NCBI GenBank assembly: GCA_018060985.1
Contig: JAGOUZ010000002.1
Coordinates: 26,396-90,395 of the forward strand
Reading direction: 5' to 3'
Length of the DNA stretch: 64,000 bases
From: Minisyncoccota bacterium
Lineage (GTDB): Bacteria; Patescibacteriota; Minisyncoccia; Phycocordibacterales; SBAW01
Below the pieces are notes generated by a model. The model was not told where the DNA came from and made no database searches. It saw nothing but the letters and a program-made list of their open reading frames with translations. Below are positions 1,948 through 43,131 of this stretch, one piece after another. The position numbers and the translations under genes were made by a program. Within the stretch, counting starts at the first letter, position 1. Every line of letters begins with the position of its first letter.

Positions 1948-3642
1948 ATGCATCGTTTATTTGCTGTCGTGGGGTTAGAAGTTAAGGGCATGCACCACGC
2001 AGCATATGTGCTCGCTGGCTTTGCTCTCGGCTCTCAACTTCTCGCACTCATACGCGATCGTTTGCTAGCCTCGTCTTTTGGCGCAGGCCAGACACTCGAC
2101 CTCTACTACGCTGCATTCCGCATCCCAGACCTTCTGTTTGTAGGTGTTGCGTCACTTCTCTCACTGTACGCACTCCTCCCGGTCCTCTCTAAGTTAGAGA
2201 GTGAGAATCCGGGGTTAGTTATAGCGTTTATGCGCAAAATGCTCATCCTCTTTTTTGTGGGGATGAGCATTGTTTGTGCTATTGCGTACGTATTTGCGCC
2301 GCAGCTGATTTCATTGGTGGTGCCTGGGTTAGCAGATGAGCCGGCACGTTTTGCGGAACTTGTATTTCTGACACAGATTCTACTGTTACAACCCATTCTG
2401 CTTGGGTTTTCAAACCTGCTCGCCAACCTTACGCAGCTTCGTCATCGCTTTATACTTTATTCCATCTCGCCTCTGCTGTATAACCTCGGCATTATCGGGG
2501 GCATACTCTTTCTGTATCCGAAAATGGGGCTTCCGGGCCTAGTGTGGGGCGTGTGTTTGGGCGCGCTTCTTCATGCGCTGGTACAACTTCCGTTCTTTAC
2601 CCTCGAGCGGGAGACAGTGCGCCTTCCGTGGGCGCGCACCTGGAAGCACTTTAAGGAAGTTCTCATACTTTCAGTACCACGGACTTTTTCGCTTGCTGCA
2701 GGGCAGATCTCTCTCTTGTGCGTCATCGCTGTTGCCTCGCTTTTGCCCGCTGGGTCAATCTCGGTATTTACCTTTGCGTGGAACCTCCAGGCGGTTCCAC
2801 TCACTATTATAGGTGTTTCGTATTCAGTTGCGGCCTTTCCAACGCTTGCTCGCTTTTTTGCAGGGCAAAAAAGCCTGGAGTTTGTCCGCCATGTCGAAGC
2901 AGCGATTCGCCACATCATATTTTGGTCCCTCCCCGCGATCGTACTCATTGTGGTGCTTCGCGCTCACATCGTGCGTGTAATCCTCGGCTTCGGCGCATTC
3001 GATTGGTCGGCAACCAGGCTGGTTGCCGCGGCGTTGGCACTGCTCGTACTTTCTCTCACGGCGCAGAGTATCTCCCTCCTTATTGCCCGGGCATACTATG
3101 CGGCGGGGAATACCGTAAAACCCCTTGTGCTGGCCGTTATAGAAGTGGCCGTTTCGGTTGTTGCTGCGCTATCGCTTGTAGTTGCTTTTGACCACTATCC
3201 GTTATTGCGTAGTACGGTTGAAATGATGCTCCGTGTAGACGATGTGCCAGGTACTGCCGTCTTGATGCTCGCGCTAGGGCTTACGTTGGGGGCCATTGCA
3301 CGCTTTTCCGTAGGTCTTGCCCTGCTAGCCCGAGATTTCAGTATTCCGCTTGGTCCTGCGAGACGTCTCTTTTTTGAGAGCCTTACCGCCTCTGTAACGG
3401 GAGGTGTGGCTGCCTACGGCACGCTTCAGCTTTTTGACCCCCTGGTCGACACCTCTACCGTGCCCGGTATTCTGACTCAGGGTTTTGCCGCGGGTACTAT
3501 GGGTCTCTTGGCTGCAGCAGCCATACTATATATTCTCAAGAGTAAAGAATTAGTAGAAATTGTGAGTGCTGCACGGCAAAAACTCGTGGGAACAGAACAG
3601 GTTGCGGTTGAGCCCTCTGATATGGCGCAAGTTCCCAAATAA
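1948..3642 (+). CDS. murJ: Lipid II flippase MurJ (MviN family)
   Basis: 564 aa, about 14 TM helices. N-terminal LDLYYAAFRIPDLLF and overall MviN/MurJ layout. The true start may be an internal Met. Confidence 0.8.
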   Translation: MHRLFAVVGLEVKGMHHAAYVLAGFALGSQLLALIRDRLLASSFGAGQTLDLYYAAFRIPDLLFVGVASLLSLYALLPVLSKLESENPGLVIAFMRKMLILFFVGMSIVCAIAYVFAPQLISLVVPGLADEPARFAELVFLTQILLLQPILLGFSNLLANLTQLRHRFILYSISPLLYNLGIIGGILFLYPKMGLPGLVWGVCLGALLHALVQLPFFTLERETVRLPWARTWKHFKEVLILSVPRTFSLAAGQISLLCVIAVASLLPAGSISVFTFAWNLQAVPLTIIGVSYSVAAFPTLARFFAGQKSLEFVRHVEAAIRHIIFWSLPAIVLIVVLRAHIVRVILGFGAFDWSATRLVAAALALLVLSLTAQSISLLIARAYYAAGNTVKPLVLAVIEVAVSVVAALSLVVAFDHYPLLRSTVEMMLRVDDVPGTAVLMLALGLTLGAIARFSVGLALLARDFSIPLGPARRLFFESLTASVTGGVAAYGTLQLFDPLVDTSTVPGILTQGFAAGTMGLLAAAAILYILKSKELVEIVSAARQKLVGTEQVAVEPSDMAQVPK

Positions 3643-13468: not shown

Positions 13469-14254
13469 TTAGTTCCATTCGAGTATCATCGGCAAATGGT
13501 CCGAAGCCTCGCTGTAAGGGACTTCAAATTTTTTTACTGCGATCTCGGGTGACACAAACGTATAGTCAGCAAATGGCATTATCGCTTTTTTGTCGTATAA
13601 GTTGCTACGCGTTGTTTTGATATTGTGTTCTTTGACTAGGTTTCGTAGGTTGGCCTCTTTTTCTATTAATTCTAGACTTGCGCTGTCTATGTTGAGGTTC
13701 AAGTCTCCGCACAGTATCTTCGGAGGGTCGAATTTGTTAATAAAATTTGCAATTCTAGTGGACTGCACAATACGTTCGGGGATATCGCCCTTGCCGCTTA
13801 AGTGCCACAGGCCGTGGAAGTTAAATATAGCCGGCCCGTTTTCGATTTGTGCAAATTGCAGCATGCGCCCAAGAGTAAACCAGTCGCCCTTTGTACCTGC
13901 CTCTACATCAAGCGCATTGCGTTTGCGGTGCACAAACACTTCGCCGTGTTCGAGTACATTGAGAGACTTTCTTACAAACAGTGCGTTGCCGAAAGAAGTG
14001 GTTGCTGCAGTAGGGCGGAAGTTAAAACCCTCTTGTACGGCGGTGTAGTAGCCGTCGAAGTCAGGAAGCATCGTGCGCAGATCATCAAACAGATGATCCT
14101 TGTACTCACTCTTAGGGTGATCTTTCTTTTCCACCGTTGTGTGATTGATTTCCTGTAAGCAAAATACGTCAGTAGTGGAAGCGTGCTCTGCAATAAATGC
14201 AGTAAAGATATCAAATTGTCTTCCGCCCCAAGCATTAAGGGATACCAATTTCAT
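13469..14254 (-). CDS. Endonuclease/exonuclease/phosphatase (EEP) family protein
   Basis: N-terminal MKLVSLNAWGG and C-terminal SDHLPMILEW are hallmarks of the EEP fold. Start set at the internal Met because the longer ORF runs into tRNA-Val. Confidence 0.65.
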   Translation of the reverse strand: MKLVSLNAWGGRQFDIFTAFIAEHASTTDVFCLQEINHTTVEKKDHPKSEYKDHLFDDLRTMLPDFDGYYTAVQEGFNFRPTAATTSFGNALFVRKSLNVLEHGEVFVHRKRNALDVEAGTKGDWFTLGRMLQFAQIENGPAIFNFHGLWHLSGKGDIPERIVQSTRIANFINKFDPPKILCGDLNLNIDSASLELIEKEANLRNLVKEHNIKTTRSNLYDKKAIMPFADYTFVSPEIAVKKFEVPYSEASDHLPMILEWN

Positions 14255-14257
14255 AGG

Positions 14258-14330
14258 TGCGCGATACAGGACTCGAACCTGTGACCCTCCCCACGTCAAG
14301 GGGATGCTCTACCAACTGAGCTAACCGCGC
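14258..14330 (-). tRNA. tRNA-Val (anticodon GAC)
   Basis: Reverse complement GCGCGGTTAGCTCAGTTGGTAGAGC-A-TCCCC-TTGACGT-GGGGA...TTCGAGTCCTGT-ATCGCGC-A. Confidence 0.85.
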
Positions 14331-14346
14331 GTTAATCACAGTTACG

Positions 14347-14964
14347 TTACACCAAAACAGCATACACGACAACGCGCTGGTCGTAGCTTTTTACCTCATT
14401 ATTCCAATCTCCTGTGCATGTAATTAAATTAAGCCGTGGACGGTCATCGCGGTTAAAAACGCGCTCAAGAGGCACGGCCTCACGAGGGTAGGAAATTACA
14501 CTTTCCACTTCAAACTGTTGCTCAGTACCATCGCTTGCAACCACAGTAATCAAATCGCCCTGTTTTAATTCTTCAATATGCTTAAACACGGCGTCCATAC
14601 CAAATCCATTGTCTAAGTGTCCGTCTATAACGGCACTGCCGCGCGCTCCAGGCACGGGGCCATAGCGATACCAGCCCACGTCGGTGTAGTTGCTAGGTAC
14701 CGCCATGTTCCCGCTTTTGCCTAAACCCACATGCTGGACTTTGGCATCAATCCCAAGCGTTGGTATCACTAGGCGGTCGGGGAGCTCTGTCGGCTCTGCC
14801 TCAACTACAATAGGGGACGCAGTCTGCTCTTCGGGTATAGAAAGTTCTGCTTCGGGCGAAAAGAGGACCGCACGCGCAAGCGTTGTCATAAACACAATAA
14901 AAGCTGCGGCGGTAACCGTTGCCACCGCGATATTGGTAACGTTTTTGGTCATGGTGGTATACAA
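14347..14964 (-). CDS. Sortase (transpeptidase; N-terminal TM anchor)
   Basis: Catalytic-domain signatures: VIDGHLDNGFG (His) and NLITCTGDW (TLxTC Cys motif). 205 aa. Confidence 0.8.
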   Translation of the reverse strand: MYTTMTKNVTNIAVATVTAAAFIVFMTTLARAVLFSPEAELSIPEEQTASPIVVEAEPTELPDRLVIPTLGIDAKVQHVGLGKSGNMAVPSNYTDVGWYRYGPVPGARGSAVIDGHLDNGFGMDAVFKHIEELKQGDLITVVASDGTEQQFEVESVISYPREAVPLERVFNRDDRPRLNLITCTGDWNNEVKSYDQRVVVYAVLV

Positions 14965-15007
14965 ACAACGGATGCTCCATCGGCATCCGTTGTACGCACT
15001 CTATAGG

Positions 15008-15226
15008 CTATTCTCGTACTCCCTTGCGGGTTAGGTACGTACCACCGACAAGCGCGATTCCGGCCGCGGCACTAAGAAGCAAGATATTTGCTGCAGTATT
15101 GCCGCCCGCACCAGTCTCCGGTACGCCAGGAGTGGTTACTTCAGGGGTTGTGGTCTGCGCGCTAGCTGCGCCTGCCAAGAGCAGGGAAGCAAGGGCGAAC
15201 GTACTTACAATTTTTTTAGTGTTCAT
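15008..15226 (-). CDS. Minimal sortase substrate: signal peptide + ~15-aa Thr/Pro-rich mature segment + VPETG sorting signal
   Basis: 72 aa: MNTKKIVSTFALASLLLAGAASA|QTTTPEVTTPGVPETG|AGGNTAANILLLSAAAGIALVGGTYL|TRKGVRE. Sec signal, then (L/V)PxTG motif, hydrophobic span and cationic tail. Lies immediately upstream of and co-directional with the sortase. Confidence 0.65.
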   Translation of the reverse strand: MNTKKIVSTFALASLLLAGAASAQTTTPEVTTPGVPETGAGGNTAANILLLSAAAGIALVGGTYLTRKGVRE

Positions 15227-15384
15227 GTGATCTAGTCAAACAAACTAGTAATGCACTTCTGTTCGACCAGTCTCTATTGAACCGTTTATACCCTTAAGAT
15301 TGGGTGAAAGAGAAAAAAAGAGCGGCACCATGCTAACGCAAGTCCGCTCGTATCTTCTAAGGCGTGCCGATATAAAAATCTAGG

Positions 15385-15469
15385 CGGAGAGGGTGGGATT
15401 CGAACCCACGATACCTTGCGGTATGCCGGTTTTCGAAACCGGTGCTTTCGACCACTCAGCCACCTCTCC
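15385..15469 (-). tRNA. tRNA-Ser (anticodon CGA)
   Basis: Reverse complement GGAGAGGTGGCTGAGTGGTCGAAAGC-A-CCGGT-TTCGAAA-ACCGG plus a long variable arm. T-arm GTGGG-TTCGAAT-CCCAC. Confidence 0.85.
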
Positions 15470-15536: not shown

Positions 15537-15608
15537 GGCCCCATCGTCTAACGGTTAGGACGGGAGCTTTTCAAGCTCTAAATCGGGGTTCGATTCCCCG
15601 TGGGGTCA
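15537..15608 (+). tRNA. tRNA-Glu (anticodon TTC)
   Basis: GGCCCCATCGTCTAACGGTTAGGAC-G-GGAGC-TTTTCAA-GCTCT...CGGGG-TTCGATT-CCCCG-TGGGGTC-A. Confidence 0.85.
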
Positions 15609-16810: not shown

Positions 16811-17314
16811 ATGCGCTCAATAAGGAAGGCGCTTTTTTATTTATCAGTCGGCCTCGACTGGCTGGCCCATTTCGTGCGCTATTGGGGCAAAAGGAGTTTT
16901 GGTGATAGTAAAGATATCGCGGGTGTCCGCGTGGTCTTGGTGCGCGATGGTAAGGTGGTACTGGTTAAGCACTGGTATGCCCCTGGGGTGTGGACCTTGC
17001 CTGGCGGCGGCCTCATGAAGGGAGAAAAGGCGACCGACGGTGCTACCCGCGAAGTCTTTGAAGAGGTAGGCTACACGATAAAATCATTTTCCGGCGAGCT
17101 TGGCATTTACGAAGGTCGCCGCGGCCGAGGCGACTCGGTTATTGTGCTGTGTTCAGAAGATTTCGAGGGCAGTATTAAAATGCTTCCAAACCTCGAGATT
17201 ATGGAGCGCAGTTTCTTTGACCTGCGCCACTTGCCGTACAATCTTTCTCCTGCAAACCGCCGGCGTGTCGAGTCCTATATAGCCGGCGCCCGCAACGAAC
17301 GCGATTACTGGTAG
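16811..17314 (+). CDS. NUDIX hydrolase
   Basis: Nudix box GGGLMKGEKATDGATREVFEEVGY. Confidence 0.8.
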   Translation: MRSIRKALFYLSVGLDWLAHFVRYWGKRSFGDSKDIAGVRVVLVRDGKVVLVKHWYAPGVWTLPGGGLMKGEKATDGATREVFEEVGYTIKSFSGELGIYEGRRGRGDSVIVLCSEDFEGSIKMLPNLEIMERSFFDLRHLPYNLSPANRRRVESYIAGARNERDYW

Positions 17315-18615
17315 CTCAGCTGTTTGCCATAGCGCGCATTAAGTTCTGTGCGTGTGGCAGGGCCTAAAATAGTGCCATCGCCCTCGATGCCGTATTTTTT
17401 CTGAAATAGTTTAAGCGCCCGTTCGGTGCAGGGGCCAAATTTCCCGGAACGCGGACACTCATTTAACGTATTGCCGGGCGGCGGGTACACTCCTTCTTCA
17501 ACCAATGCAGTTTGCAGGGCGACTATGTCTAACGAGGTATCCGTATCTGTGCCCACCGTGCGCTCCCACGTGTAGGGAAGTAGGGTGCTCGTGTATGTCT
17601 TTTGGCTACTTCGGTCAAAGAAATCTTGCAGCCCCAGGTACGTTTGCATGGCAACATCGTGCACGGTTGTTTGGCGCAGCGCATCTTCTGTCCATTGCGG
17701 CTCATAAATATAGCCATACTCAACCAACATGCTTGCAGCCGACTGCGAGTTGTCGCGGCCAATCGCGATAAGTTTTGCCTCTTCAACAATGCCCGCGCTT
17801 TCTCCCGGTAGATCACTCACCGGGTAGTAGCGAGCAAGGCGGTCATACAATTTTTCTGCAATAGCCCGCGACACGTCGTTGTTGGCATAGCCCGGGTATG
17901 GGATATACAACGCAAAACCTGAGTATGTTCCTGGTTCAGAGGCGCGCGAGCGCGGGTGGTCATTAATGTGCAGGTGCAACACCACGTCTACGTCGTTTTC
18001 ATCGGCCCATTTGTTAATACCGTTTAAGCGAACCGACGGGCCTTCTGGTGCAGGGTTGTGGCGTACGGCAGGCACCACTTCTTCTCGCAGGCCCGATGCT
18101 TCCAGGCGCGCGGTCTCAACTTTGTTGCTGTCGCGCCATGCAACAATACGGTCCCAATTAGTATCAAAATAATGTTGTAGGGTAGGGTGCCAGCCGGTTT
18201 TGGTGCGCGCCACCATGACAGAGATCGATCGGTTGGCACGTAAACGTTCTGCTAGTTCGTCTGCGATATCAACCACAATATCGCGTTCTAGTAGGTCTTT
18301 ATATTCGGTACCGCCGTAGTTTGGTTCGTGGCCAGGCACAACAAGTATGCTTAGGCGTTTACCTTGCTGGTTCTCATACCGAGCATATAAGCCCTGAGTG
18401 GTTTTAGCGGCGCGTACTGTGGCCGCAGTATTGTCCGTCTCAGGCCATTCCTCAGGCAGGTAAGGGCTCGACAGTATAAAAAGTGCCATGGCCGCGCATA
18501 CTGCACTGCACATAACCAAAATCATCCTTTCCGTCATACGCTCTAGTGTAACGCGGAGTTTTCCCTCTGATACAATAGGGTGCATGGTACGCAAAGTAAT
18601 TCGCTTTTTCGACAA
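17305..18615 (-). CDS. N-acetylmuramoyl-L-alanine amidase (Amidase_3) with C-terminal peptidoglycan-binding (PG_binding_1) domain
   Basis: ILVVPGHEPNYGGTEY…DVVLHLHINDH (amidase_3 zinc ligands). C-terminal …ALQTALVEEGVY…FGPCTERALKLFQKKYGIEGDGTILGPATRTEL matches a PG-binding repeat. The true start may be the internal Met (MTERMILVM…, TM anchor), which would end the CDS near 18537. Confidence 0.8.
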   Translation of the reverse strand: MSKKRITLRTMHPIVSEGKLRVTLERMTERMILVMCSAVCAAMALFILSSPYLPEEWPETDNTAATVRAAKTTQGLYARYENQQGKRLSILVVPGHEPNYGGTEYKDLLERDIVVDIADELAERLRANRSISVMVARTKTGWHPTLQHYFDTNWDRIVAWRDSNKVETARLEASGLREEVVPAVRHNPAPEGPSVRLNGINKWADENDVDVVLHLHINDHPRSRASEPGTYSGFALYIPYPGYANNDVSRAIAEKLYDRLARYYPVSDLPGESAGIVEEAKLIAIGRDNSQSAASMLVEYGYIYEPQWTEDALRQTTVHDVAMQTYLGLQDFFDRSSQKTYTSTLLPYTWERTVGTDTDTSLDIVALQTALVEEGVYPPPGNTLNECPRSGKFGPCTERALKLFQKKYGIEGDGTILGPATRTELNARYGKQLSYQ

Positions 18616-24236: not shown

Positions 24237-24794
24237 TTAATTTTGTGCGGGGGTGCTTCCCGGAAGCAGATTGATTTGTTCAATAGGGAGGAGACGCAAA
24301 AACGCACGGCCGACAATATTTTCTCTTGGTAGGGTGCCCCAAATACGCGAATCTGAACTTTCTGGTCGGTTGTCGCCCATCACAAAGTACTCGTTGTCAT
24401 CAAGAATTTCCGTAATACCATTGCCATTGCCGCGATTAACCAAGTAAGACTCGTTTAGTTCGAGCGTATAACCGTCTTTTTTAGTGATGGTTACGCCGTT
24501 TGAGGTAACCCGTACCGTTTCGCCTGGGAGGCCAATGATCCGCTTGATGAAAAACTGCGAAGGGTCCTTAGGATACTTAAAAATAACCACATCTCCGCGG
24601 TTAGGGTCTTCAAAACGATAGGAGAGTTCGTCAACAATGAGGTACTGCCCGTTGTGGAAGGTCGGATCCATTGAGGCTCCCGACACAATAAAGGGTTGTG
24701 CAACAAAAAGTCGCACGGGTACTACGATCACAACTGCAATAAGAGCAAACTTTAGGAGTTCAGTGAAGAAATTCTCACGCTCTCCTTGTGGCAT
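24237..24794 (-). CDS. lepB: Signal peptidase I
   Basis: Catalytic Ser box VSGASMDPT, Lys box RGDVVIFKYP, and GDNRPESSDSRIWG. Confidence 0.85.
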   Translation of the reverse strand: MPQGERENFFTELLKFALIAVVIVVPVRLFVAQPFIVSGASMDPTFHNGQYLIVDELSYRFEDPNRGDVVIFKYPKDPSQFFIKRIIGLPGETVRVTSNGVTITKKDGYTLELNESYLVNRGNGNGITEILDDNEYFVMGDNRPESSDSRIWGTLPRENIVGRAFLRLLPIEQINLLPGSTPAQN

Positions 24795-25392: not shown

Positions 25393-26491
25393 ATTTCTTG
25401 TCTCCTGCGTAGGCGAGCGCCATGCGCATTTCTTTAGGTTCAAAGAGGGAAATAGTGAAGGGGTAGCGCTTGCCGAGCTCAAGGTTTGAGCGAAGCTTCT
25501 CCTCGGTGCCAAACTCGCTCACATGCACTAGGCCTGCAATGCCTTCCTCGATAGAGGCAAGTGCGCCGTGCTTGTTGAACTTGATAACCACGCCCTCAAC
25601 TTTGTCTCCCTTGTTGTACTTGGTTTGTGCAGTAATCCAAGGATTTTCCTTAAGCTGTTTAACCGAAAGGGATACCTTGCCGTCTTTAATATCGATGATT
25701 TTAACCTTGGTTTTATCTCCAACCTTAAAGAAGTGGCGAGGATCATCCACGAGGCCCCAGTCGATTTCAGAAATGTGGACCAAGCCTTCAAGACCCTCTT
25801 CAAGCTTAACGAAGACGCCGAAGTCCACCATGCCGGTAACCTCGCCCTCAACCGTGTCGCCCATCTGGTAGTTAGCAATGAGCTCCTTCTTCTCTTTGTC
25901 GTCGATGCCTTTCTCCGAGAAGATCAGTTTGCCTTCTTTTGGCTGTGCGCCAATTATCGAAACCGGGATACGGGTACCAACAAGCTTGCGGAGTTCGTCC
26001 AAGATCTTGTCTTTGTCGCCATCGGTAACGCGAGGGTAGTGCTCTGCCTTAAGTTGTGAAGCGGGGAGGAAGCCAGCGATACCCTGCCATTCGAGGATAA
26101 GACCTCCCTTGTTTGCCTCTTTAACCAAGAGGTCGAGAACACGCTTGTCTTTAACAGCCTCTTCTGCCTGTGCCCAAATAATGGCCTGGCGAGCTTCTTT
26201 AAGAGAAAGCTCGATATAGCCCTCGCGATGGTCGGTAGAAATTACTTTAGCGGCTACGCGGTCGCCAATGTTAGTGCGCTTAATAACCTCGCGAGCGTTC
26301 ATGTACTCGCGGCCGTAAATAATGCCTGTGCCAAACGGCGCTAGGTCGATATAGAGGCGTGCGCGGTCGAGTGCGAGCACAGAGCCCTCTACAATGTCGC
26401 CCTCTTTAGGCGGCTCTGGTGCGCGATCAGAAAATCCCTGCATCAATGATACAGGTGCGTCGACCTCCTTAACGAGTTCTTTTGTTGCCAT
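25391..26491 (-). CDS. rpsA: 30S ribosomal protein S1 (short, 4 S1 domains)
   Basis: Repeated S1 OB-fold motifs (GDIVEGSV…, GDTVEGEVTGMVDFGVFVKL…, GDKVEGVVIKF…). 366 aa. Confidence 0.85.
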   Translation of the reverse strand: MATKELVKEVDAPVSLMQGFSDRAPEPPKEGDIVEGSVLALDRARLYIDLAPFGTGIIYGREYMNAREVIKRTNIGDRVAAKVISTDHREGYIELSLKEARQAIIWAQAEEAVKDKRVLDLLVKEANKGGLILEWQGIAGFLPASQLKAEHYPRVTDGDKDKILDELRKLVGTRIPVSIIGAQPKEGKLIFSEKGIDDKEKKELIANYQMGDTVEGEVTGMVDFGVFVKLEEGLEGLVHISEIDWGLVDDPRHFFKVGDKTKVKIIDIKDGKVSLSVKQLKENPWITAQTKYNKGDKVEGVVIKFNKHGALASIEEGIAGLVHVSEFGTEEKLRSNLELGKRYPFTISLFEPKEMRMALAYAGDKK

Positions 26492-33109: not shown

Positions 33110-34411
33110 ATGGGAATGTCGACCTTTCAAATTATCGTTCTTGGTGTGTGCGCCGCGCTTATTTTAATTGGCGTCGGCGTCTTTGCGTCGTTTGGAGGTC
33201 TTGGCAACGAGGATACTGTAGGCGACGTAACGATCTGGGGCACCGTCGACTCTTCGATTATGGATCGGCTCATCAGCACCATGCTGAGCGGTGACAAGGC
33301 CTTTTCAGGAGTAGATTACGTCGAAAAAAGTCCTACGACGTATCATGCCGACATAGTTAATGCGATGGCCACAGGCAAAGCTCCCGACCTGGTGTTTCTA
33401 AGCCAGGAGGAAATCGGGATTTTTGAAGACAAGCTTCTTATCATTCCATATGGCATGGTCTCCCAGGCCACTTTTCTCAGTTCGTTTATAGACGAGAGCC
33501 AGGTATTTTTGACCGACGAAGGAGAGTTAGCTCTTCCGTTTATGGTTGACCCAGTAGTGATGTATTGGAATCGCGACCTTTTTTCATCGGCTGGCGTTGC
33601 GTCTCCACCCAAGTTTTGGAACGACTTTCTGACACTCGCTCCCAAAATGACTTCGCTCGACGCGGGGGCCAATATCACCAAGAGCGCCGTAGGTTTGGGG
33701 CAGTGGCAAAACGTCGCCAATGCAAAAGCAATACTATCGACCCTGTTTATGCAGGCGGGGGACAAGGTAGTCGTACGTAAAGGGAGTGGTGACCTCGAGG
33801 TCGTGCTGGGTGATGTGCCAACTAACGCACCATCAAATCCTGCCGAATCTGCTCTTCGTTTTTATACCGAGTTTACGAACCCCTCCAAGACCACCTACTC
33901 GTGGAATCGTACGTTACCACTCTCAACGACGGCTTTTGTAGCGGGCGATGTGGCAGTCTACTTCGGCTTTGCGAGTGAGTACCCAAGTCTTGCAGCTCGT
34001 AACCCAAACCTGCCCTTCGCTGTAGCTCGTGTTCCTCAGGTTGAGGGTTCTTCTATTAGAGCTACCTACGGTCGGCTCACCGGTATGGTGATCCCACGCA
34101 ACGCAAGCAACCCTAACGGGGCGGCACAAATCGCTCAAAGGCTCTCAAGTGCCGAGTCTGTTTCTACACTCTCTGCCTTAACGGGTCTGCCGCCGGTGCG
34201 CCGAGATGTTACGATAAAGACGTCAGACAACGCAGCTATGGGTGTCTTTGTAGAGTCGGCGCTTATTGCGCGCGGATGGGTAGATCCAGATTCCACAAAG
34301 ACAGATGCCATCTTTAGAACCATGATAGAATCGGTGGTAAGCGGCAGGCTAGACTCAGGTGGCGCAGTAAACGAAGCCTCGCGGGCGATGGAACAATTGC
34401 TGAAGAAATGA
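33110..34411 (+). CDS. Extracellular solute-binding protein (ABC-type, family 1-like) with N-terminal TM anchor; orphan (no permease/ATPase adjacent)
   Basis: 433 aa. SBP_bac_1-like features (…ESALRFYTEFTNPSK…DVAVYFGFASEYP…). Its stop overlaps the start of the first pilin-like gene (ATGA). Confidence 0.55.
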   Translation: MGMSTFQIIVLGVCAALILIGVGVFASFGGLGNEDTVGDVTIWGTVDSSIMDRLISTMLSGDKAFSGVDYVEKSPTTYHADIVNAMATGKAPDLVFLSQEEIGIFEDKLLIIPYGMVSQATFLSSFIDESQVFLTDEGELALPFMVDPVVMYWNRDLFSSAGVASPPKFWNDFLTLAPKMTSLDAGANITKSAVGLGQWQNVANAKAILSTLFMQAGDKVVVRKGSGDLEVVLGDVPTNAPSNPAESALRFYTEFTNPSKTTYSWNRTLPLSTTAFVAGDVAVYFGFASEYPSLAARNPNLPFAVARVPQVEGSSIRATYGRLTGMVIPRNASNPNGAAQIAQRLSSAESVSTLSALTGLPPVRRDVTIKTSDNAAMGVFVESALIARGWVDPDSTKTDAIFRTMIESVVSGRLDSGGAVNEASRAMEQLLKK

Positions 34412-34803
34412 AAAAAATACTTATTTTGCTGTTCGCTTTTTCTATACTTGTGCCATCCTTCGCGCCTTCTATAGCGTTTGCTCAGGGTGGTGGAGGTGGT
34501 GGCCCGACGGGTGGCATGGGCGGCAAAGTAACGCTCGAAAATCCGCTTGGCGATGTAGATACCTTTCCAAAACTTATCAAAGCCATTCTCGATGCGGCAT
34601 TTATTATTGGCCTGCCGGTAGCAGTGCTTTTTATAGTTATTGCAGGCTTTCGCTTTGTCTGGGCACGCGGCAACCCTCGTGGGCTTGATGAGGCAAAGCA
34701 CAATTTCCTCTATACGGTTATCGGTATCGGCGTCTTCTTTGGGGCATGGACACTGGCTAAGATTATCGAAAGTACCATAAGCGCCCTTGGCGTAGGATCA
34801 TGA
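34408..34803 (+). CDS. TrbC/VirB2-like (T4SS-pilin-like) small two-TM protein, paralog 1 (Gly-rich N-terminal segment)
   Basis: Signal peptide MKKILILLFAFSILVPSFAPSIAFA, a GGGGGGPTGGMGG tract, then two hydrophobic helices separated by ARGNPRGLDEAKHNF. Confidence 0.5.
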   Translation: MKKILILLFAFSILVPSFAPSIAFAQGGGGGGPTGGMGGKVTLENPLGDVDTFPKLIKAILDAAFIIGLPVAVLFIVIAGFRFVWARGNPRGLDEAKHNFLYTVIGIGVFFGAWTLAKIIESTISALGVGS

Positions 34804-35069: not shown

Positions 35070-35157
35070 GCATAGGGTTCGCTCTTATTATCCACACCCC
35101 GATCTTGTAGGGCATGTGTGTGGTGCTAGTATGAAGACATACAAATTTAATAAAATT

Positions 35158-35511
35158 ATGAAAAAAACAGCACTTATCGGTTCTATATTTTTTGCACTTC
35201 CAGCTCTCGTTTTTGCTCAAGCTAAGCCAGAATTAAGCTATTTCGGAGAGTTCATTCAGGCCATTGGAAACTTTGTTAACATGTCGATACCGATCTTAAT
35301 CGGTATAGGTCTCTTGGTATTCTTCTGGGGTCTTATTCAGTACATCCGCAAGCCAGAGGCTGCAGAAGGCCGGAAGATTATGATCGCAGGTCTCGTTGGC
35401 TTGTTTATCATGGTATCTGTCTGGGGCATCATTTCTCTCGCACAAGGCATCTTCCAGGTAAAGGGCGACTCTAGCGACGTAAACACTCCAAGCATTCCGG
35501 ACCAGAAGTAG
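35158..35511 (+). CDS. TrbC/VirB2-like small two-TM protein, paralog 3
   Basis: Signal peptide MKKTALIGSIFFALPALVFA, then …IPILIGIGLLVFFWGLIQYIRKPEAAEGRKIMIAGLVGLFIMVSVWGII. Confidence 0.5.
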   Translation: MKKTALIGSIFFALPALVFAQAKPELSYFGEFIQAIGNFVNMSIPILIGIGLLVFFWGLIQYIRKPEAAEGRKIMIAGLVGLFIMVSVWGIISLAQGIFQVKGDSSDVNTPSIPDQK

Positions 35512-41292: not shown

Positions 41293-43131
41293 ATGTGTGG
41301 CATCGTAGCCATTATTGCCCCTAAGGGGGATATCGCTCCCGTGCTGCTCGACTGCATCAAGCGGCTCGAGTACCGCGGGTATGACAGTGCCGGCGTGTCC
41401 GTCGCCAACGGCGGCGACCTGCAGGTTCTGAAGGCGGTTGGCCCTGTGGCCAATCTCAAGAACCGGTTCGACACCTCGCCGGTTCATGGCAACCGCGGCA
41501 TCATCCACACCAGGTGGGCGACCCACGGTGAAGTGACCGAAGAGAACGCGCATCCGCACGTCTCGAACGACGGCACTATTTCCGTCGTGCACAACGGCAT
41601 CATCGAGAACCACGACATGCTTCGCCGTCGCCTGATGAGTGCGGGGTACGTGTTCCACTCGCAGACCGACACAGAGGTCATCCCGAACCTCATCGAGCTG
41701 AAGCTCCTCGAAGGGGCCAACTGCCTCGAAGACGCGGTTGCCAGTGCTGTCGAAGATCTCGACGGCGCCTACGCAATCGCGGTCGTCTCGTCGATGCATC
41801 CGGAAATCGTGATCGCAAGGCAGAGCAGCGACCTGTTTCTCGGCCTCAACGGCGGCACGCACTACGTCGCGTCCGACGACCTCGCGTTCGCCGGCTATGC
41901 TTCGCACACCGTCCCGATCAAGGACGGCGACATCCTGACCCTCAAGAACGACGGAACCTACCACTTCCGCGAACACGATGCAGCGCGCAAGCGCGACATC
42001 GAAGTGTTCGACGCCGATTCTACCAGCGTCGACAAGGGCACGTACGACTCCTTCATGCGGAAGGAGATCTACGACCAGCCGAACGCGCTCAAGCTCGCCA
42101 CTGCCGGCCGGATCACTCTGGACGGCGAGGTGGTGTTGGGCGGCATCCGCAACGCGGAGGAACGTCTCGCTTGCTCGCGCATGATCGAGTTCGTCGCGTG
42201 CGGCACGTCGCTCTACGCCTCGACGATCGGAGCGCAGATGATCGAAGGTCTTGCGCGGATACCTGCACGGGCCAGCCACGCCTCGGAGTTTCAGTATCGC
42301 GATCCGATTCTGAACTTCCACGACGCGGTCATCGCCGTTTCGCAGTCGGGCTCTACGGCCGACACGCTGAACGCCGCGCGCCTTGCCATGAAGGAAGGCG
42401 CGCTGACGCTCGGCATCAACAACCGGGTCGGGTCATCGCTTTCTCGCGAGACCGGCGCTGGTATCTACCTCCATGCGGGGTCGGAGATCGGCGTCGCATC
42501 CACCAAGGCTTTCACCGCGCAAGTTGCGGTGATGGCACTTCTTGCAGCTCGGCTTGCTACTCTTGCCGGCCAGGGCCATCAGCCTCGCGTTGCGCGGCTG
42601 GTGCGTGGACTCCGCGAACTTCCGGACAAAGTTGCTCTCGCACTCACGTGCGAACAGCAGGTCAAGGAGATCGCGCAGATCTACAAAGACGCGAAGAGCG
42701 TCTTCTGTCTCGGTCGGGGCTTTGCGGTGCCGCTCGCATACGAGGGCGCCCTGAAGCTGAAGGAGATCGGCCAGCTCAATGCAGAGGGGTATCCCGGCGG
42801 CGAGCTCAAGCACGGCCCACTGGCGCTCATCGAGCGGGGCGTGCCCGTCATCGCGGTGATCTGCAAGGGTGACGGACTCGAGGGGAAGATGATCTCCAAC
42901 CTCGAGGAAGTTCGCGCACGTGGCGGCGATGTTATCGTCATCACGAGTGGAATGGTCGCGCTTCCGGATGGTCTTGCAAAGCACGTCATCGTGCTTCCGC
43001 AGGTCCCGCCGGAACTGATCTCGGTCATCGGCGCGATCCCGTACCAGCTTCTCGCGTACCATGTGGGAGTGGCACAAGGGTTCGACGTCGACAAGCCGCG
43101 GAATCTCGCCAAGTCGGTGACGGTCGAGTAA
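41293..43131 (+). CDS. glmS: Glutamine--fructose-6-phosphate aminotransferase (isomerising)
   Basis: N-terminal MCGIVAII (Ntn Cys), two SIS domains, C-terminal …PLAYHVGVAQGFDVDKPRNLAKSVTVE. Strongly GC/GC3-enriched relative to neighbours. SD GAAGGAGA upstream. Confidence 0.95.
   Translation: MCGIVAIIAPKGDIAPVLLDCIKRLEYRGYDSAGVSVANGGDLQVLKAVGPVANLKNRFDTSPVHGNRGIIHTRWATHGEVTEENAHPHVSNDGTISVVHNGIIENHDMLRRRLMSAGYVFHSQTDTEVIPNLIELKLLEGANCLEDAVASAVEDLDGAYAIAVVSSMHPEIVIARQSSDLFLGLNGGTHYVASDDLAFAGYASHTVPIKDGDILTLKNDGTYHFREHDAARKRDIEVFDADSTSVDKGTYDSFMRKEIYDQPNALKLATAGRITLDGEVVLGGIRNAEERLACSRMIEFVACGTSLYASTIGAQMIEGLARIPARASHASEFQYRDPILNFHDAVIAVSQSGSTADTLNAARLAMKEGALTLGINNRVGSSLSRETGAGIYLHAGSEIGVASTKAFTAQVAVMALLAARLATLAGQGHQPRVARLVRGLRELPDKVALALTCEQQVKEIAQIYKDAKSVFCLGRGFAVPLAYEGALKLKEIGQLNAEGYPGGELKHGPLALIERGVPVIAVICKGDGLEGKMISNLEEVRARGGDVIVITSGMVALPDGLAKHVIVLPQVPPELISVIGAIPYQLLAYHVGVAQGFDVDKPRNLAKSVTVE

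Follow-up and report, generated by a model that had tools for sequence, protein, structure and literature searches.

The 64,000-nt stretch of DNA analyzed here (hereafter the window; positions 26,396 to 90,395 of contig JAGOUZ010000002.1, from a Minisyncoccota bacterium) encodes a sortase next to a 72-amino-acid (aa) protein that consists of a secretion signal, a sorting signal, and very little in between. We hypothesize that the two form a dedicated module in which a class-F-like sortase grafts a short Thr/Pro-rich peptide, the mature part of its cognate mini-substrate, onto peptidoglycan, and we put the probability of this reading at about 60%. In current understanding, sortases either display folded proteins or assemble pili. 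Passenger-less substrates encoded beside their own sortase in ultrasmall bacteria of the Candidate Phyla Radiation (CPR) imply another use of the enzyme, in which the wall is covalently decorated with a short Thr-rich peptide. A sortase/substrate pair whose substrate has no passenger is probably what is new in this system, and the chemistry itself is probably conventional. The precursor and its parts are as follows, with a slash marking a predicted cut.

15008..15226, minus strand: mini-substrate precursor gene, an open reading frame (ORF) of 72 aa with an ATG start (hypothetical protein KBD50_01045 at NCBI; P0001)
15158..15226, minus strand: Sec signal peptide MNTKKIVSTFALASLLLAGAASA, residues 1-23, with a KK n-region, a hydrophobic core, and a c-region ASA; predicted signal peptidase I cut ASA/Q
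15113..15157, minus strand: predicted mature peptide QTTTPEVTTPGVPET, 15 residues by translation, with no Lys and no Cys
15110-15124, minus strand: VPETG pentapeptide, by translation
15101..15136, minus strand: extended conserved sorting motif TTPG-VPETG-AGG, from position-specific conservation, with the predicted scissile bond T38/G39
15011..15112, minus strand: putative membrane-retained C-terminal part, comprising GAGGNT, the hydrophobic span AANILLLSAAAGIALVGGTYL, and the basic tail TRKGVRE, by translation

All of these sub-coordinates were confirmed by translation. An earlier reading of the letters alone (the sequence-only reading) had described a sortase beside a 72-aa substrate with VPETG, a 15-residue mature segment, and a TRKGVRE tail; that description is accurate in every detail of coordinates and translation, and the small ORF does hold every element of a Sec-exported sortase substrate. 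The tripartite C-terminal signal can be read directly, running from VPETG through AANILLLSAAAGIALVGGTYL to TRKGVRE, and the precursor after Thr38 is G-AGGNTAANILLLSAAAGIALVGGTYL-TRKGVRE (translated from 15011-15112). The acyl mass computed for QTTTPEVTTPGVPET is 1538.746 Da, or 1521.720 Da with an N-terminal pyroglutamate. The precursor is not a bacterial lipoprotein candidate, as it contains no Cys and no lipobox and has A-S-A/Q in the cleavage region. The conserved G-G after TG (95% and 77% in the family described below) gives it a superficial likeness to GlyGly-CTERM proteins and rhombosortase targets; because the P-x-T-G is invariant and a sortase gene is adjacent, processing by sortase is favored for this GG-bearing signal. 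A regular-expression and hydropathy scan of all six frames found no second sorting-signal-like C terminus in the 64-kb window. This uniqueness and the large family described below set the small ORF apart from a chance occurrence.

The mini-substrate ORF ends 43-55 nt upstream of the sortase start on the same (minus) strand.

14347..14964, minus strand: class-F-like sortase gene, 205 aa from a TTG start, with a likelier ATG at 14952 giving 201 aa (P0006)
14617-14619, 14416-14418, and 14374-14376, minus strand: catalytic codons for His116, Cys183, and Arg197, respectively, verified by translation

The ATG at 14952 is likely the true start, since it is the one called by NCBI for P0006 and agrees with the N termini of homologs in the alignment. 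Homology and structural modeling together point to a genuine membrane-anchored sortase of the class-F type that is probably active. The protein matches the Pfam family PF04203 (Sortase) over residues 65-205 with 82.7 bits against a cutoff of 26.6 (E 2.4e-23). Its top NCBIfam model is NF033748 (class_F_sortase) at 145.9 bits, which falls under the curated cutoff of 166 bits, and we therefore use the label class-F-like rather than treating it as a strict member. All other classes score at most 29 bits, with the class GN hidden Markov model (HMM) second-best at 29 bits and class C at 21.8 bits, so the sequence-only identification of the enzyme as a sortase stands and now has a class-F type assignment attached to it. 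NCBI likewise names P0006, an identical 201-aa protein from a Candidatus Pacebacteria metagenome-assembled genome (MAG), "class F sortase." His116, Cys183 (in LITC), and Arg197 are invariant across 22 homologs that share 47-80% identity. An AlphaFold2 model (predicted local distance difference test score [pLDDT] of 89) predicts an N-terminal membrane helix at residues 3-35, a low-confidence linker at 36-57, and a β-barrel catalytic domain at 62-204 in the 205-aa numbering. Foldseek matches this model about equally to solved class A, C, and E sortases (E ~1e-10, template modeling [TM] score ~0.5-0.6, 15-23% identity), with no class F structure available for comparison, and the nearest solved structure by sequence is only distant (2xwg, E 1.4e-4).

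SrtF of Cutibacterium (P.) acnes is the one characterized class F enzyme and recognizes the LPXTG sorting signal like sortase A (PMC8225981). The window system shares with it the membrane anchor, the His-Cys-Arg triad, the β-barrel, and an xPxTG-type signal beside the predicted enzyme, but differs in its Paceibacterota (CPR) rather than actinobacterial host, in V, T, or A in place of L, in the extended motif, and in its 1:1 pairing with a tiny substrate.

Sortase and mini-substrate are conserved as a pair. We scanned one genome per species and recovered 80 sortase loci, which together with three further loci (L001-L003) and the window make 84; a substrate was scored as a same-strand ORF ending 4-300 nt upstream and containing a signal peptide, xPxTG, a hydrophobic span, and a basic tail. 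Such an upstream substrate is present at 61 of the 84. The 80 scanned loci are all from Paceibacterota, with Kaiser-, Adler-, Nomura-, Taylor-, and Zambryskibacteria among the lineages, and some of the MAG records are labeled otherwise, e.g., "uncultured Candidatus Saccharibacteria." Approached from the substrate side, the loci L001-L003 and L084-L094, representing approximately 11 independent places, each have a neighboring sortase gene, and the only deviating arrangement is a convergent sortase at L091. The sequence-only reading had staked the pairing on the small ORF being kept beside sortase homologs, and it is kept in both surveys (61/84 and ~11/11). We note a frameshifted mini-substrate at L038 (1713-2009, 1858-1971), the only frameshifted copy seen, and a 151-aa protein (P0168) in which the mini-substrate N terminus is fused into the C-terminal half of the sortase; both are probably assembly or frameshift artefacts or pseudogenes.

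The mini-substrates form a large family. Homologs of P0001 include P0002-P0005. A profile built from five mini-proteins was searched against 1.84 billion representatives of 50% identity clusters and returned 300 clusters at E ≤1e-3, of which 52 reach E ≤1e-10; almost all have lengths of 60-90 aa. The xPxTG motif is present in 143 of the best 150 matches, and the predicted mature length, counted from A-x-A/Q to the motif Thr, ranges from 10 to 74 residues with a median of 18.5. The mature peptides (140 peptides) are composed of 37% T, 12% G, 11% P, and 10% S, and every listed family member carries the hydrophobic span and the R/K tail. A 43-residue profile of the sorting signal alone retrieved 154 proteins, of which the best 120 are all of 48-83 aa, indicating that this signal is borne predominantly by tiny proteins. 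The 15-residue mature length proposed for the window protein is thus typical. The sequence-only reading had called it unusual next to large LPXTG adhesins, which is correct as a comparison, but the small size is not unique to this genome and is the norm for this sorting signal.

Conservation extends to both sides of the pentapeptide. Among 232 non-identical sequences, the four preceding positions are T at 81%, T at 90%, P at 91%, and G at 89%; the pentapeptide itself reads V, T, A, or L (55, 23, 12, and 2%), P (100%), N, S, D, or E (80, 9, 6, and 1%), T (100%), and G (100%); and the following positions are A (71%), G (95%), and G or D (77 and 20%). This yields a conserved 12-residue core, TTPG-[V/T/A]-P-[N/S/D]-T-G-A-G-G, so that the VPETG signal of the sequence-only reading is present but is better described as part of a longer TTPG-VPETG-AGG block, in which the Glu of the window protein is a rare variant at motif position 3. 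That TTPG and AGG are kept points to recognition of an extended site or, alternatively, to selection on the grafted stub itself. In the shortest members, which have 10 residues (QTTTPG-x-P-x-T), the mature peptide is solely an N-terminal Gln plus the motif. LPXTG proteins (PF00746; TIGR01167) share the tripartite C-terminal signal and the N-terminal Sec signal, and some family members are in fact automatically annotated as "LPXTG-motif cell wall-anchored protein" by JGI (Joint Genome Institute) and NCBI; the mini-substrates differ in having no Leu, a passenger of 10-20 residues rather than hundreds, and both flanks of the pentapeptide conserved.

Natural variants at the otherwise invariant positions include Pro-to-Gly (VGNTG, VGDTG), Thr-to-Ala (VPAAG, VPNAG, MPNAG, APAAG, VPEAG), and Gly-to-Ser or -Ala changes (VPSTS, VPSTA), located at L005 3735-3962, L008 2649-2981, and L056 3152-3940 and in P0137, P0155, P0175, P0191, P0224, and P0260. 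These variants could inform on the tolerance of the sortase.

More distant sortases pair with substrates of 100-300 mature residues that end in the same PG-xPxTG. No Pfam domain was found in these long substrates, which gave only sub-threshold matches to Gram_pos_anchor and DUF4082. Short and long substrates are interspersed in a neighbor-joining tree of the sortase catalytic domains, and because this tree is poorly resolved, no direction of change between short and long can be claimed. The existence of long substrates with the same motif, together with passenger lengths that are labile across the tree, would be expected if the mini-substrates were decayed adhesins that had lost their passenger and now sat without function beside a sortase serving other proteins. 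We consider such a remnant very unlikely, given that an ORF of 60-80 aa with signal peptide, motif, span, and tail all intact persists in hundreds of divergent lineages, that the 10-residue form recurs in several clades, that the sorting signal sits predominantly on tiny proteins, and that a single frameshifted copy was seen. Two of the long substrates (L059 3246-3992, L083 3302-3970) contain 4-5 tandem Cys repeats of ~30 residues (GC-x-S-x-x-GYS-x-TTG-x-PCNG) belonging to no Pfam family, and these may constitute a novel, small repeat domain that is held by disulfide bonds and displayed by this type of sortase.

The route that we propose for the mini-substrate follows by homology from characterized sortases, which for class F means P. 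acnes SrtF acting on LPXTG (PMC8225981). The 72-aa precursor would be exported by Sec, and signal peptidase I would cut after ASA and expose an N-terminal Gln, with the hydrophobic span and basic tail retaining the precursor in the membrane. The membrane-anchored sortase (His116/Cys183/Arg197) would then read TTPG-VPETG-AGG and cut at Thr38/Gly39, between T and G in the TTPGVPETGAGG stretch, to give a thioacyl intermediate that would be resolved by an amine of lipid II or of a peptidoglycan stem peptide. The product would be the 15-residue wall-linked (pyro)Gln-TTTPEVTTPGVPET. As there is effectively no passenger domain, the grafted peptide itself would carry the function, probably as an abundant hydrophilic wall coat, and could act as an attachment site for O-linked sugars.

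The first of these processing steps bears on another arrangement, in which the N terminus stays uncleaved and the protein is a two-helix membrane hairpin or, should the sortase alone act, a tether of ~15 residues linking membrane and wall covalently. Hydrophobic helices at both termini and a very short loop fit this arrangement, which we nonetheless regard as highly improbable: the canonical A-x-A/Q site occurs in essentially all members (57 of 57 locus-encoded homologs with a call and 140 of 143 database homologs), the same pattern is found in other secreted proteins of these genomes, the layout of n-, h-, and c-regions is what cleaved signal peptides typically show, and the window encodes a signal peptidase I. 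We rejected the N-terminal Gln as a family-specific trait, since other secreted proteins encoded at these loci and in the window commonly have Gln at +1 as well. Examples of Gln-exposing predicted signal peptidase I sites, from a crude heuristic rather than SignalP, are ...SIAFA/QGGGG, ...LVFA/QAKPE, and ...GVAFA/QEDT, and such sites were seen in the window at 34408-34803 (plus strand) and 35131-35511 (plus strand) and at L030, L033, L035, L044, L075, and L081. The pattern in Paceibacterota resembles the "Q-rule" of signal peptidase sites that was described as Bacteroidetes-specific (PMC5837995).

The conserved residues downstream of the scissile bond raise the question of whether the act of processing matters more than the graft. 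A soluble Thr-rich peptide could be released by hydrolysis, or the 34-residue C-terminal membrane fragment could be the functional part, either signaling in the membrane or serving the sortase as regulator or placeholder. Of the conserved portions of the precursor, the C-terminal part is the longest, no role in canonical signals is known for the G-A-G-G kept after the scissile bond, and a hybrid histidine kinase is encoded nearby at 18 of the 84 loci; in Streptococcus gordonii, a membrane kinase senses cleaved sorting-signal peptides. However, Pfam assigns GAF, HisKA, HATPase, and REC domains to the nearby kinase but detects no membrane sensor domain in it, the presence of this kinase in a subset of loci only is consistent with plain synteny, and the T-run and TTPG upstream of the cut are as conserved as the downstream part, which would be needless for a pure leaving group. 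We view a function residing in processing as unlikely.

The sequence-only reading had offered polymerization into a minimal pilus-like fiber as an alternative to wall attachment, and the composition of the family speaks against it. Lys is found in only 3 of the 140 mature peptides, and Cys in none; the other 137 and the window protein lack Lys, and there is no room for a pilin fold. Canonical class C polymerization through Lys isopeptide bonds is therefore excluded. The mini-substrates do resemble class C pilins in being small, probably abundant secreted subunits encoded beside a sortase, with a probably expression-limiting hairpin between the genes, but they have no pilin-motif Lys, no E-box, and no CnaB/IgG fold, and the sortase is not class C. 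What could still be envisaged is a head-to-tail polymer in which the peptides are joined through the free N-terminal amine into a repetitive Thr/Pro-rich filament or brush, with anchoring to the wall as the last step. A dedicated, probably abundant substrate beside its own sortase is reminiscent of pilin and pilin-sortase genes, and shortest members that approximate the recognition motif alone would make a sensible repeating unit. The invariant N-terminal Gln is prone to pyroglutamate cyclization, which would block the N-terminal nucleophile, Gln at +1 is not specific to the family, and the sortase model is equally like classes A, C, and E with no pilin-sortase signal. With the known class C mechanism excluded as well, we judge head-to-tail polymerization quite improbable and retain single peptides grafted onto peptidoglycan as the preferred outcome.

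Between the two genes lies a conserved RNA hairpin.

14959..14999, minus strand: RNA hairpin in the spacer from the substrate stop codon to the sortase start, with a minimum free energy of -23.6 kcal/mol (z = -4.2)
14965-14993, minus strand: inner stem-loop of ~11 bp, ending 7-12 nt before the ATG at 14952 and overlapping the alternative TTG start at 14964

None of 200 shuffled sequences folds as well as the 14959-14999 hairpin. At the equivalent place, a perfect stem of at least 8 bp is found in 27 of 56 related loci versus 0.6% of shuffled controls, and most of the remaining related spacers fold strongly with imperfect stems. The hairpin is GC-rich, and its position is conserved but its sequence is not (e.g., L002, L005, L009, L011, L014, L034, and L035). 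We considered a canonical intrinsic terminator and rejected it, as a T-rich tail follows only 2 of the 27 strong stems; with the U-tail mostly absent, we use no more specific term for the element than conserved hairpin. Most simply, it would depress expression of the sortase relative to the substrate or stabilize the substrate mRNA, and it probably keeps substrate expression well above sortase expression.

The Thr-run in the mature peptide makes O-glycosylation plausible, as the sequence-only reading had also noted. GspA of Actinomyces oris, the glycan-carrying substrate considered here, is larger than the 60- to 80-aa mini-substrate precursors. The GspA/SrtA/LcpA pathway provides a precedent for a glycan-bearing, wall-anchored sortase substrate (PMC6381275) and fits the Thr-rich stub as a glycan carrier, with glycosylation of the mini-substrate itself entirely hypothetical. 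It differs in that no LCP gene is linked to the mini-substrate pair. Because no glycosyltransferase or LCP gene is consistently linked, we keep O-glycosylation as a tentative proposal, with a prospect of roughly one in three. In one subclade, genes for a membrane GT2/polysaccharide deacetylase and an epimerase lie divergently upstream of the pair, an arrangement that is not general; the same subclade encodes a DUF5670 protein of 50-58 aa just upstream of the mini-substrate (L001 707-874, L003 3652-3804, L086 7766-7918, L088 6431-6607). In the window, we had considered the ORF at 90-1895 as a GT-C plus TPR glycosyltransferase and dropped it, as only the TPR part matches known families.

A more far-reaching version of the grafting hypothesis, which we find doubtful, is that in Paceibacterota the class-F-like sortase, rather than chiefly displaying proteins, mass-grafts Thr-rich peptides of 10-20 residues as an O-glycan primer or carrier or as a concatenated brush, giving a peptide wall polymer in the role of teichoic acid or a wall glycopolymer. 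Were it true, it would be the first physiological role for a class F-type sortase. Braun's lipoprotein (Lpp) offers a functional analogy only, as a very small and abundant polypeptide covalently linked to peptidoglycan; it is attached through a C-terminal Lys by L,D-transpeptidases and carries an N-terminal lipid, whereas the mini-substrate lacks a lipobox Cys, and its link to the wall would be made by sortase through the C-terminal Thr. Closer in gene organization are SrtB-IsdC of staphylococci and the class GN "marine" sortase, in each of which one sortase is encoded beside one cognate substrate with a noncanonical motif variant. Their substrates are folded proteins of known or presumed function (e.g., heme binding), unlike the mini-substrate, which has no folded passenger.

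Several observations weigh against a dedicated module of sortase and mini-substrate. No same-strand substrate lies directly upstream at 23 of the 84 sortase loci; these exceptions include contig ends (L024, L048), the frameshift at L038, and loci with the substrate elsewhere (L050, L070), and at further ones a matrixin-like peptidase gene or a small ORF stands directly upstream of the sortase instead. The sortase falls short of the curated class-F cutoff, as described above. The 72-aa precursor matches no Pfam or NCBIfam family at E ≤1, the LPXTG-anchor model included, neither the PF00746 (Gram_pos_anchor) nor the TIGR01167 HMM recognizes it, and its motif begins with Val instead of Leu. Cleavage and wall linkage are, in every family member, predictions from sequence. 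The sortase may also serve other, larger substrates, such as those of 170-300 residues that related loci carry with the same motif, and a 15-residue peptide may not reach the cell surface, which would leave its benefit doubtful. Finally, clustering of the neighboring genes (688 ORFs from the 84 loci, compared all against all) revealed no PMT, GT-C, or LCP gene consistently adjoining the pair, and the recurrent neighbor families each occur in only 8-24 of the 84 loci. These are GlmS (24 loci), a DHO_dh-like protein (21), the hybrid histidine kinase (18), a matrixin-like peptidase (17), a β-lactamase-fold protein (15), GT4 (9), and PAP2 (8); DUF2585 also recurs.

Sortases are enriched in CPR bacteria (PMC6744442), whose envelope is poorly understood (PMC5220378) and mediates their episymbiotic lifestyle. 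Our search of the literature on sortases and LPXTG proteins in CPR, Patescibacteria, and Parcubacteria, whose coverage is incomplete, found no description of this mini-family, its size, its extended motif, or the 1:1 pairing. As late as 2026, class F sortases were described as having no known physiological role (PMC13251363), a question that the mini-substrate pair would make directly testable. The pair may also provide protein-ligation work with a sortase that recognizes a new motif (TTPG-xPxTG-AGG).

The surroundings of the pair in the window include genes for secretion and wall metabolism.

1948-3642: lipid II flippase MurJ gene
17305-18615: wall hydrolase gene, Amidase_3 with PG_binding_1
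24237-24794: signal peptidase I gene
41293-43131: GlmS gene

From these genes, the host appears equipped for lipid II export (MurJ), an amino-sugar precursor step (GlmS), wall turnover (the amidase), and the first step in processing of the mini-substrate (signal peptidase I). The pair sits among housekeeping genes, flanked by tRNA-Val (14256-14330, minus strand) and tRNA-Ser (15383-15469, minus strand), with tRNA-Glu (15537-15608, plus strand) beyond the latter. Many relatives share a common synteny consisting of the matrixin-like peptidase, followed at some remove by the substrate, the sortase, the DHO_dh-like protein, the β-lactamase-fold protein, and GlmS; in the window, GlmS is 26 kb distant, indicating that the pair has moved. 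The Exo_endo_phos ORF at 13469-14299 (minus strand), as mechanically called, overlaps tRNA-Val, and its start is probably an internal Met at ~14254 (MKLVSLNAWGG...). One of the window proteins with a Gln-exposing site, the 131-aa secreted protein encoded at 34408-34803 (plus strand), matches T4SS_pilin/TrbC-VirB2 at E 1e-13 and would have QGGGGGGPTG as its mature N terminus. The next ORF (35116-35511) resembles a small multi-helix membrane protein, and the two may be part of a Patescibacteria type IV secretion system.

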